This document shows positions 11,096-45,914 of a stretch of DNA of 64,000 nt, piece by piece (position 1 is the first letter of the stretch; the number at the start of each line of letters is the position of its first letter). A program made the position numbers and the translations under genes. Location: IMG/VR virus record IMGVR_UViG_3300028833_000073, positions 1 through 64,000 of that record, one strand, 5' to 3'. The DNA is from a virus (lineage: Duplodnaviria; Caudoviricetes). The notes under the pieces were generated by a model. That model did no database searches. It was not told where the DNA came from and saw only the letters and a program-made list of their open reading frames with translations.

Positions 11096-11323
11096 ATGAC
11101 AAAGTTTATTCACTGGGTGAGACTCCCAGAGTTTCCGTTTACCCATATAGATGAAGATTTTGAAGTCGATATAGTATTGGATGAAGCATGGGAGGAGGTG
11201 AAAAAGATACTACATCAGCATGGCTTTGCTATGCAAGAACATTTTGATGGTGCTTTTGTTGCGTTTCCCTTCGGGGAGAGCGCAGAAGAGACAACCGAGG
11301 CCTGGGAAGGATGGGAGGTGTAA
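11096..11323 (+). CDS. Small acidic early protein
   Basis: SD AAGGAGG before ATG 11096; GC-richer than the flanks; terminator GGCCCCTC-TTTG-GAGGGGCT at 11331-11350. Confidence 0.75.
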   Translation: MTKFIHWVRLPEFPFTHIDEDFEVDIVLDEAWEEVKKILHQHGFAMQEHFDGAFVAFPFGESAEETTEAWEGWEV

Positions 11324-11397
11324 AAACAATGGCCCCTCTTTGGAGGGGCTTTTAAATTTTGTCAAATTCATTAATTTCTATGATACTGAAGAGATAT

Positions 11398-11437
11398 GTG
11401 ATCTAAAATAAATATAGGCATATATTATAGTTGTGCC
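11398..11437 (+). promoter_or_regulatory. Early promoter; 40-bp direct repeat copy 2
   Basis: GTGATCTAAAATAAATATAGGCATATATTATAGTTGTGCC. Confidence 0.8.
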
Positions 11438-11473
11438 GATAGTAAATAATGTCATCGAAAGGAGAAGATAATT

Positions 11474-11920
11474 ATGATGACTTATGAAGATATTAAGCGC
11501 GAGATGGAGAATGCAACCAGAAGTGATTGGTATCCTGATATCGAACCATACGGGGATATCAAAATTCGCTGGCGCGATGAAGTAAGTGATTATATCGTTG
11601 TCCATAATGGCAACGAAAAAATCATTGAAACATTAGACCTTGTCAATGCTTGTCATGTTGCGGCAAAACTTGCAGAAGAGCAATCTAGCCGTGATTTCAA
11701 TGATCTGTATCATCGCACGGAATTCGACTATTCCCAGTGGACATGGGATGGTTGCTTGAGAGTGGTAGTAGTCGGCCGTATTTACGGTGTATTCGACTAT
11801 CATGACAATGATGGGTTCCCTCCGGATCTTACTGTTCGGAGGTATAATACCATCGAAGAAGCGATCAACGCTTTCAATGAGCGTGTTGACTATTGGAAGG
11901 ATTGCGATATTATAGATTAA
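11474..11920 (+). CDS. Acidic early protein, GC-richer than the genome
   Basis: SD AAAGGAG; frequent CGC/GCG codons; followed by a hairpin at ~11930-11955. Confidence 0.8.
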   Translation: MMTYEDIKREMENATRSDWYPDIEPYGDIKIRWRDEVSDYIVVHNGNEKIIETLDLVNACHVAAKLAEEQSSRDFNDLYHRTEFDYSQWTWDGCLRVVVVGRIYGVFDYHDNDGFPPDLTVRRYNTIEEAINAFNERVDYWKDCDIID

Positions 11921-22331: not shown

Positions 22332-22376
22332 CCAAATCAAATCTTAGTGATATATTATATATGTGGTGGTATTGGG
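22332..22376 (+). promoter_or_regulatory. Early promoter (GTGGTGGTATTGGG leader subtype)
   Basis: GATATATTATATATGTGGTGGTATTGGG, identical to 23604-23631. Confidence 0.75.
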
Positions 22377-44225: not shown

Positions 44226-44861
44226 ATGAGAGATACAAATACTATAAAAAGATTCAAAGACTATGATTTGTTTGTTGAAGAATGTAATGAGCTTAAAGAT
44301 TTTGTTATTGATTACATGGGAAGAGATAAATATGGATCAGTAAATATAAAGATGATTAAAGCATTTTCTTCTTTTGAAAAATCTACACTATTTGGTAGAT
44401 ACTATCGACCAACTGATACGATTGCTATATATCTGTATAATATACGCAACCGTACAGAAATGCATCAACATGCTAAGTTATTAGCAATAACAGTGATAAT
44501 ACATGAACTAGTTCATTCTAATAGATGTGCAGATACTAAGAATGATATTATCTTTAATGCACACAAAAACTATAAGAATGCAATGGAATTAGATTGCAGA
44601 CTACAAACCATGAGAATATTTACTGGGATGAAAGACATACTTATCAAAAGGCCATATTTATTTACTGAAAAAGCAATCAATCAGCAGATAATCAATATTA
44701 AGATTGATATTTTAAAGTATTACTGGAATATGATACCAGATGATGAATCCATTGGTATAAAGACCAATGATAAGATACGTGAGAAACTAAATGAGATATC
44801 TGATCTACTAGAACAAGAAGATATCTTTAAAGATGTTCCTGAATTTGGATGGATAAGATAA
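44226..44861 (+). CDS. HExxH zincin-like metallopeptidase
   Basis: LFGRYY..IAIY..VIIHELVHS..MELDC. Confidence 0.6.
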   Translation: MRDTNTIKRFKDYDLFVEECNELKDFVIDYMGRDKYGSVNIKMIKAFSSFEKSTLFGRYYRPTDTIAIYLYNIRNRTEMHQHAKLLAITVIIHELVHSNRCADTKNDIIFNAHKNYKNAMELDCRLQTMRIFTGMKDILIKRPYLFTEKAINQQIINIKIDILKYYWNMIPDDESIGIKTNDKIREKLNEISDLLEQEDIFKDVPEFGWIR

Positions 44862-44902
44862 TAAATTTAGAGTACCCTAAATGGGTACTCTATTTCTTCT
44901 GA

Positions 44903-44936
44903 CCAAATTCAAAAATAGGCATATATTATATATGTG
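44903..44936 (+). promoter_or_regulatory. Early promoter driving a unit with no substantial ORF
   Basis: CCAAATTCAAAAATAGGCATATATTATATATGTG. Confidence 0.75.
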
Positions 44937-45066
44937 AGCTTAGAGCAATAAGTTTTAAGAAAAGGAGTTGATTTTATAAACAAAGGTAATAGAGATGTTG
45001 ATCAGGTTGTCACTGGTGGACAATACCTTTGTGTAGATTTTTATGACTAATATGACTATAGAATAT

Positions 45067-45370
45067 AAGTATTTCATTCACCTGAAGCGAAGTTCCGAGA
45101 GTCGATCCTGGCGCAAGACATTGTGGGGGCGCCTAGTCTTAGAGCATGGTTAGCTCTATGCGCGTAGATAGTAGTGGAAGGAAAGTTTCTGCCGCGCACG
45201 AATAAGGACGTAATAAATCCCTGGAACGCTGAATCGTATTGGTGATCGGAGGTGGATTAATAATTGAAGATAGTATCAGATTCTCCGCCGAATATGGATC
45301 TATTTGGTCCAGGCGTAAAATTAGAATTGTAGCGAAAGTTACTTACGCCAAATATCCTGAAGAAATACTT
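45067..45370 (+). ncRNA. Unidentified structured ncRNA candidate (transcript ~44935-45405)
   Basis: 13-bp closing stem plus at least seven internal helices, a GAAA tetraloop, elevated GC and no credible ORF; bounded by promoter and terminator. Confidence 0.65.
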
Positions 45371-45379
45371 GAATTGATT

Positions 45380-45410
45380 AGAGTACCTTTTGGGTACTCT
45401 TTTCTTTTTT
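45380..45410 (+). terminator. Intrinsic terminator, GTAC family
   Basis: AGAGTACCT-TTT-GGGTACTCT plus long T-run. Confidence 0.8.
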
Positions 45411-45417
45411 CCTGAGT

Positions 45418-45449
45418 AAACAAAATCTTGGAGATATATTATATATGGG
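45418..45449 (+). promoter_or_regulatory. Early promoter
   Basis: AAACAAAATCTTGGAGATATATTATATATGGG. Confidence 0.7.
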
Positions 45450-45542
45450 AAGGAAGAGAGAGATATGTTTTGAATCATTTAACCTCCAACTAATAGATTT
45501 AGCTAAGACTAAATAACAAATAGAAAGGAAAGATGATTCAAG

Positions 45543-45914
45543 ATGTCTAGAAGAAAGAATTACTCTATTCCTGATTGTCCTAAAATTGGAAGGTATGATG
45601 GTCTTGGAATGGCCGCTGTGCCATTAGCAATAGCAGATAAGGAGAGAGAGTTAGGTATTAGTCATAGTAGTTCTTCTTCATATGACTATGGCTATGATGA
45701 TTATAGTTATGAAGAGGACGAAAAAGAGCTTGAAAAAGAATATGATGATATATATAATCGGGGAAAGAAACGTGGGTTTGAAGAAGGCTATCTTAAAGGA
45801 AGATTAGAAGTCTTGGTTGATTTTCTTGATAAAGATATTGATTATATACAAGATAAGATCAATGAAGATATATATATACTTGCATTCGGTAAAGATGCCA
45901 TAAACCATATTTAA
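45543..45914 (+). CDS. Acidic hypothetical early protein
   Basis: 123-aa ORF after an early promoter. Confidence 0.7.
   Translation: MSRRKNYSIPDCPKIGRYDGLGMAAVPLAIADKERELGISHSSSSSYDYGYDDYSYEEDEKELEKEYDDIYNRGKKRGFEEGYLKGRLEVLVDFLDKDIDYIQDKINEDIYILAFGKDAINHI

Follow-up and report, generated by a model that had tools for sequence, protein, structure and literature searches.

The interval 44936-45410 on the plus strand of this phage DNA is a unit of ~470 nt that has no ORF and is bounded by its own early promoter and terminator. On the basis of its sequence and modelled structure, it may be an accessory, independently transcribed early non-coding RNA (ncRNA) of ~470 nt that resides in a swap cassette and functions as a folded molecule; we put the probability of this reading at roughly 40%. 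The folded-ncRNA reading is the best supported because the expression signals are intact, a stem runs end to end, the leader and 3' domain are stable, CpG is retained and the body is non-coding.

Source genome, transcription signals and composition

The window (the whole stretch of DNA that was analysed) corresponds to the initial 64 kb of an IMG/VR virus record of 158,305 bp, itself ~64% complete. On the basis of a conserved protein of 869 aa, the phage can be assigned to the AR9/PBS1/phiR1-37-like jumbo phages, with an identity of only 22-25%, a figure that for AR9 comes from one conserved protein. The unit and its borders consist of the following elements:

44868..44899, plus strand: terminator of the preceding 211-aa gene, hairpin TAGAGTACCC..GGGTACTCTA and T-run (terminator scan, 12-copy family)
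44899..44936, plus strand: early (virion-RNAP type) promoter, CTGACCAAA..AAAATAGGC-ATATATTAT-6N-G, predicted +1 at G 44936
44936..45066, plus strand: AT-rich leader with a 5' hairpin (44939-46/44952-59), SD-like AAAAGGAG (44960-67) and a long hairpin (44980-88/45024-32)
45067..45370, plus strand: GC/CpG-rich body with a 13-bp closing stem (45067-80/45358-70), in MFE and centroid folds
45092..45227, plus strand: predicted helices of the 5' domain, GTTCC/GGAAC, GGCGC/GCGCC or AAGAC/GTCTT, AGAGC/GCTCT and TGCGCG/CGCGCA
45246..45349, plus strand: predicted 3' domain, three adjacent hairpins (45246-91, 45295-311 and 45312-49), in MFE and centroid folds
45380..45410, plus strand: intrinsic terminator, hairpin AGAGTACC-TTTT-GGGTACTCT and U-run (terminator scan)
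45412..45449, plus strand: second early promoter, +1 at 45449, driving a conserved 123-aa gene

The injected virion RNA polymerase of AR9 reads early promoters that conform to the consensus AAATATATATTAT-(6N)-G+1 and have an AT-rich upstream region (PMC5312081). The unit has a promoter of this type: AAAATAGGC-ATATATTAT, with its core at 44921-29, is followed by ATATGT and then by G at 44936, such that the core ATATATTAT-6N-G+1 and the AT-rich upstream region are common to AR9 early units and to this one. The extended motif is present in 24 copies in the 158-kb record, most of which reach an RBS and ATG within 20-50 nt. AR9-type late motifs (AACA-6N-TA/G) are found in the studied genome too. 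For AR9, 41 early start sites are reported, which precede annotated genes (PMC5312081), whereas the studied unit has no gene; by term search, neither 'noncoding' nor 'non-coding' is present in the text of the AR9 transcription paper (PMC5312081).

At the opposite end, a 9-bp stem at 45380-45400 is followed by TTTTCTTTTTT, as expected for an intrinsic terminator. Terminator-like sites are more frequent in the region than predicted (eight observed versus 1.3 expected in the terminator scan), and that of the unit belongs to a 12-copy hairpin family, G[AG]GTACC..GGTAC[TC]C. An earlier reading of the DNA, made from its letters alone (the sequence-only reading), had proposed that an early promoter and a terminator enclose the unit; the AR9 consensus match and the 24-site and 12-hairpin families bear this out.

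The higher GC and CpG that had been remarked upon by eye are also real: the GC content of the unit is 0.45-0.47 (0.43-0.51 in the core) versus 0.34 for the genome, and its CpG observed/expected ratio (o/e) is 1.37 in a record that has a GC content of 34% and is strongly depleted in CpG (o/e 0.31 overall). With respect to this ratio, the unit has rank 2 among ~3160 windows of 300 nt. CpG is retained in the known structured RNAs of the genome (group I intron, o/e 0.89; tRNA, 0.81), and 10 of the 19 CpGs lie within the proposed helices, which make up 39% of the bases, a mild enrichment that is partly circular. High GC and CpG are not specific to RNA genes here because a protein-coding early accessory gene at 11474-11920 is as CpG-rich as the unit. 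A CpG-normal composition may only be a mark of recent acquisition or import, and CpG in this phage is a useful marker for DNA that is either imported or structure-constrained. Across the record, CpG-normal islands coincide with early accessory genes (e.g. 11300-11900), the group I intron, the tRNA and ORF-less units.

Coding capacity, known RNA families and predicted fold

By every available test of its sequence, the unit is non-coding. The absence of a credible ORF, as previously claimed, is upheld: there is no ORF of at least 60 aa on the plus strand within the unit, and its stop-free runs are at chance level when compared with dinucleotide shuffles (P = 0.33, 0.12 and 0.14 for the three longest). 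A Pfam search of the six stop-free frames gave no match. When the longest internal frame (67 aa, minus strand) was compared by phmmer with 1.8 billion proteins, the only two matches were artefacts, as they are to tandem repeats of ~100 aa with summed scores (27 bits per repeat), and a word search with a spurious 73-aa ORF identified no related contigs. By a codon-usage score for which 59 long genes served as the training set and in which real genes reach 0.2-0.5 per codon, the GC-rich body contains no coding-like frame (best -0.13 per codon). Taking start codon, codon usage and homologues together, no protein-coding gene is found, and the only coding-like frames are two of 22-24 codons. One of these, 44976-45050 (24 codons), scores 0.54 per codon, a value exceeded by 0.6% of spurious frames; it begins with ATA, ends with TAA at 45048-50 and has no ATG, GTG or TTG inside. 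The other, 45264-45332 (22 codons from a TTG), is preceded by GGAGGUG (45248-54) and scores 0.33, which ~3% of spurious frames reach.

In sequence, the leader is similar to 5' UTRs that precede other early genes in the record. At one position where an ATG could be expected, 8 nt after the SD-like motif, there is an ATA (44976); from its sequence, the leader looks like the 5' UTR of an early gene or disabled mRNA minus its start codon, which the sequence-only reading had overlooked. In Gram-positive bacteria, mRNAs can be stabilised at the 5' end by a hairpin and/or a start-less SD, as in STAB-SD and the aprE leader. The unit is similar in having a hairpin from +4 and the SD-like AAAAGGAG at +25 to +32 with no usable start, a purely sequence-based likeness given that a dead 5' UTR would show the same features.

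The unit is plausibly an orphan early ncRNA belonging to no known class, as judged from sequence searches. Rfam 15 gave no match in the window at gathering thresholds and noise only at E<=10 (14-22 bits to unrelated sRNA and miRNA models), these sub-threshold matches being driven by the terminator or by the hairpin of the neighbouring UTR; novelty with respect to the described RNA families, one of the points made at the outset, therefore holds. ARAGORN identified no tRNA or tmRNA in the window and one tRNA-Arg elsewhere in the genome. With Rfam 15 (to E<=10) and ARAGORN both negative, the reported lack of tRNA, tmRNA, RNase P and group I hallmarks stands. In the whole record, the only Rfam/ARAGORN matches are these two:

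87228-87304, minus strand: tRNA-Arg(TCT) (ARAGORN/Rfam scan)
126335-126563, minus strand: group I intron (Rfam, 73 bits)

Several candidates were rejected. The group I intron model RF00028 is silent on the unit at E<=10 though it finds the 126335-126563 intron at 73 bits, and there is no split ORF or frame continuity across the unit to indicate an intron-split gene. No Rfam 15 model for RNase P, 6S, SRP RNA, phi29 pRNA or GOLLD/ROOL/raiA/OLE/HEARO matches. A retron or DGR RNA was dismissed since there is no RVT_1 match in the 158-kb record (~64% complete) and no second copy of the body. We take GGAAGGAAAG to resemble RNase P CR-I and other strings in the unit to resemble group-I R/S; the corresponding models are unmatched and the required pairings absent.

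Large structured RNAs borne by phages or located close to phage genes include phi29 pRNA, GOLLD, ROOL, raiA, HEARO and OLE, all of which are in Rfam. RNAs of the phi29 pRNA/GOLLD/ROOL type and the unit are alike in being hundreds of nt long and multi-helix, with GC above that of the surroundings and with their own promoter and terminator. Whereas covariation in numerous genomes underlies the definition of those families, the unit is a single sequence with weak thermodynamic support.

Fold predictions were compared with those of shuffled sequences, using the genome's own group I intron as a control:

44936-45410, plus strand: whole unit with terminator, z -2.76, 1/100 shuffles fold as well
44936-45379, plus strand: unit without terminator, z -2.0, 7/200 shuffles fold as well
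45060-45375, plus strand: core, z -1.75 to -1.92, 7 of 100-200 shuffles fold as well
45060-45375, minus strand: core, opposite strand, z -1.92, 5/100 shuffles fold as well
44936-45066, plus strand: AT-rich leader, z -2.6, 0-1 of 200 shuffles fold as well
45090-45230, plus strand: GC-rich 5' domain, z +0.21, 103/200 shuffles fold as well
45240-45352, plus strand: 3' three-hairpin domain, z -2.88, 0/200 shuffles fold as well
126335-126563, minus strand: group I intron (control), z -3.74, 0/200 shuffles fold as well

Fold support for the unit is moderate in these models (z of -2.0 to -2.76 for the whole, -1.75 to -1.92 for the core), and the minus strand of the core folds equally well as the plus strand. 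The signal is also uneven: the overall multi-helix fold that had been proposed is not set apart from chance by these modest z-scores, and only the 3' domain (z -2.88) and the leader (z -2.6) stand out; the 5' domain (z +0.21), which contains most of the helices originally listed, folds no better than shuffles. All of the helix arms quoted in the sequence-only reading are present where it placed them, and the MFE and centroid folds retain a part of these helices: the closing stem, GTTCC/GGAAC, TGCGCG/CGCGCA (in part) and the three 3' hairpins, including GUAGC-GAAA-GUUAC. In the 5' domain, GGCGC/GCGCC (45110-14/45129-33) and AAGAC/GTCTT (45115-19/45136-40) are mutually exclusive as nested helices; a pseudoknot of the two would have loops of 0 and 2 nt and would be sterically strained. 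In the 3' domain, the hairpin at 45312-49 has a GAAA loop and a 10-nt bulge, that at 45246-91 sequesters GGAGGUG (45248-54), and the domain overlaps the TTG frame at 45264-45332.

Swap-cassette architecture and other ORF-less early units

From the sequence comparisons, the unit is situated in a PeSL-like swap cassette, a point that had previously been missed. A terminator and early-promoter module of ~70 nt flanks it on both sides and is also present at other early loci. The two copies (44868-44936 and 45380-45449) can be aligned with one another as well as with the contigs L007, L017, L014 and L016, and the content of the slot at these modules differs as in PeSL-type cassettes: in L014 and L016 it is empty, consisting of the terminator and promoter alone, while in L007, L013 and L017 there is other cargo. 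In the studied phage, the slot is occupied by an orphan gene of 211 aa and, behind it, the unit, both of which have modules of the same type at their borders. In T4-like phages, it is through such modules that the orphan cargo of PeSL cassettes is inserted, deleted or replaced (PMC2839356, PMC4122927). The composite of terminator hairpin and early promoter and the orphan nature of the cargo are common to those cassettes and the unit. The PeSL of T4-like phages, however, have sigma-70 promoters, whereas the studied phage is of another lineage with an AR9-type virion RNAP promoter; its cargo, unlike that of PeSL, is without an ORF, and recombination between its modules is deduced from comparison. 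Such recombination would explain the presence of the unit in this phage and its absence from relatives, and a PeSL-like architecture would account for the relatives' assemblies breaking at the same point.

We were unable to identify a homologue of the unit. A blastn search against 50,697 phage genomes (E<=1e-5 and E<=10) gave only chance matches of 21-25 nt, and searches of its own genome by nhmmer and BLAST found only the unit itself. There were no matches in exact-pattern scans of IMG/VR for the shared leader and the GAAA hairpin, nor for two 21-mers from the GC-rich core among 185,579 species genomes. The downstream 123-aa gene does have relatives (46-77% identity), and through it the syntenic locus was reached: in none of the eight relatives with DNA there is the unit present. 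In L007, L013 and L017 the slot carries a gene of ~241 aa, for which a weak, sub-threshold Pfam match suggests an RNase H-like product. Behind this gene lies unit C, an ORF-less element that is unrelated to the unit and is present singly or as two tandem copies. Two further contigs with 437-nt gaps probably share this arrangement. L007, another phage, is 97% identical to the studied phage over the terminator, promoter and 5' UTR; its 123-aa homologue is only 71% identical and its sequence upstream of the terminator is unrelated.

L013:513-790, L017:857-1152 and L007:1-146: unit C, with GAUGAAACCCAGCA as its conserved start and with CUGAAGUGAGGCU inside

Unit C has no Rfam match, and its consensus structure is weak (-4.4 kcal/mol, one compensatory pair). 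At L013:830-930 there is an empty cassette, in which an early promoter, a leader and AAGGAGG run straight into another early promoter without an intervening gene; this indicates that cassettes can be hollowed out.

44226-44861: orphan early gene, 211 aa, in its own cassette upstream of the unit, with the HExxH motif VIIHELVHS

The 211-aa protein has a weak match to Tox-MPTase3 (E 0.055) and no homologue among 5.8 billion proteins; from its sequence, it may be a small metallopeptidase. The 123-aa family (45543-45914), for which there is no Pfam family, has a near-invariant stretch of 36 residues at its start (YSIPDCPKIGRYDGLGMAAVPLAIADKERELGI) and a variable, acidic and Tyr-rich tail. In the 5' UTR of this gene (45466-45545), a long hairpin, UUUUGAAUCAUUU/AGAUGAUUCAAGAUG, buries the RBS and start codon, and its conservation in L007, L013 and L017 suggests translational control.

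Other early units of the phage are also without an ORF:

96051-96100 (L009:12051-12100), just upstream of unit B: mini-RNA of ~50 nt, hairpin and T-run, with its own early promoter
96106-96470 (L009:12106-12470; listed at 96142), outside the window: unit B, second ORF-less early unit
124922: another tiny ORF-less early RNA unit

Unit B and the tiny RNAs at 96051 and 124922 indicate that ORF-less early units recur in this phage. Unit B shares with the unit its promoter, the first 17 transcribed bases (GAGyyUAGAGyrAUAA) and its type of terminator. Its body differs, with a CpG o/e of 0.85, GC above that of the genome and three GAGAUAnnAUCAA-like repeats, and its fold is no better than chance (z +0.6 to +0.9); according to these models, stable structure is not the common feature of the ORF-less early units of the phage. 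Homology between the two bodies was considered and dropped, as they share a single local match of 27 nt (P ~0.02). The 96051 mini-RNA contains CCAAUACCACC, which is exactly complementary to GGUGGUAUUGG as found at the start of three early leaders: its segment CCAATACCACC exactly complements GGTGGTATTGG, with which the leaders at 22365, 23620 and 128088(-) begin, making it a candidate antisense regulator of these transcripts.

Alternative explanations and implications

Because the leader is like the 5' UTR of an early gene whose start codon has been lost, a decayed or hollowed-out cassette is a serious rival to the folded ncRNA. An early coding moron would here have lost its start codon and had its body replaced or scrambled by recent foreign DNA, leaving a transcribed, functionless RNA, which we consider somewhat unlikely. 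The leader context, GTTTTAAGAAA(A)GGAG, then ATA at 44976 and then a gene-like frame without ATG, GTG or TTG, is consistent with such a history, as is the existence in a relative of an empty promoter, leader and SD cassette (L013:830-930). The CpG o/e of 1.37 would fit recent import (compare the coding gene at 11474), the central domain (z +0.21) and unit B (z +0.6) lack a fold signal, and the neighbouring 211-aa gene is an orphan as well. The folded ncRNA, for its part, has to contend with the lack of a homologue in any collection searched, a minus strand that folds as well, a 5' domain at z +0.21, a sister unit B at z +0.6 to +0.9 despite the same promoter and leader start, and the fact that the close relatives L014 and L016 do without the unit. 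Decay is argued against by the body, since foreign DNA is mostly coding and yet the body has no coding-like frame or homologue; by the leader and 3' domain, which fold above nearly all shuffles; and by the promoter, terminator and 13-bp end-to-end stem, all of which have been kept intact.

Translation of the frames at 44976-45050 and/or 45264-45332, which would make the unit a small-protein mRNA or dual-function RNA, is decidedly unlikely: both have gene-like codon scores (0.54 and 0.33, against 0.6% and 3% of spurious frames) and an SD-like motif before them (spacers of 8 and 9-11 nt), and the true start region at 122434 has a context similar to GGAGG..ATTAATAA(T)TG, but the first has no canonical start, the SD of the second is buried in a predicted hairpin, both were picked post hoc among several candidates and have no homologues, and ~200 nt of GC-rich sequence without coding signal lie between them. 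By analogy with the 96051 RNA, which is complementary to GGUGGUAUUGG leaders, the unit could be a base-pairing regulator or sponge of early leaders, to which we give only a small chance. RNAduplex pairs 45116-45166 with the first ~46 nt of the 76842 leader in an imperfect duplex (z -6.3 versus 60 shuffles) and, more weakly, the unit with the neighbouring 45449 leader (z -3.3), and AGAUAGUA, of which the unit has two copies, is found in the 76842 leader as well. The 76842 duplex, however, is G-U-rich, ignores intramolecular structure and is that of one leader among the 23 compared; AGATAGTA is frequent throughout the genome (33 copies); and there is no exact complementarity of at least 13 nt anywhere in the record, for which reason an antisense target for the unit was rejected. 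The chance of a divergent known class that the models have missed (a group I remnant, RNase P-like, 6S-like, retron or guide RNA) is very slight. Only loose look-alikes speak for it, namely GGAAGGAAAG, strings similar to R/S and a stem that joins the two ends in the manner of retron a1/a2; against it, Rfam returns noise at E<=10 while the same library finds the group I intron at 73 bits, ARAGORN is negative, the record lacks a reverse transcriptase, and the unit has neither exons at its flanks nor a partner gene.

If the unit is a folded ncRNA, the injected virion RNA polymerase of this AR9/PBS1-like jumbo phage would make an RNA of ~470 nt, the ends of which would be protected by the 5' hairpin and SD-like element on one side and by the terminator hairpin on the other, and would be joined by the long closing stem. 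The most plausible role for the folded body would be to bind or titrate a host or phage protein during takeover, with base pairing to a target being less likely; the ribozyme, decoy or anti-defence roles put forward in the sequence-only reading are guesses. If real, the unit would be a new, family-less RNA in a type of cassette that is, by analogy, already known.

The early accessory cassettes of phages house takeover and counter-defence functions, and their known cargo is almost all protein. RNA cargo (~300 nt, GC-rich) in a phage that has several further ORF-less early units would suggest that this arsenal has an RNA arm in those jumbo phages that possess RNA polymerases of their own. A further step, namely that uncultivated AR9-like jumbo phages have an early programme rich in RNA and that the unit founds a novel class of large, folded phage RNAs in it, is unlikely. 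In that event, unit B, the 96051 leader-antisense mini-RNA and unit C would be further early ncRNAs of the lineage, RNA cargo would be exchanged via terminator/promoter cassettes, and RNA-based takeover or counter-defence would be a regular part of the early programme. If the cassette is instead a decayed one, GC-rich units that run from promoter to terminator without an ORF need comparative or expression evidence before an RNA gene is called.

Elsewhere in the record, an ORF-less gap contains three tandem repeats of ~100-125 nt each (106440-106760), each of which contains a CCCAUC-CGAAG-AUGGG hairpin and a ACAAGUGUUGA segment.
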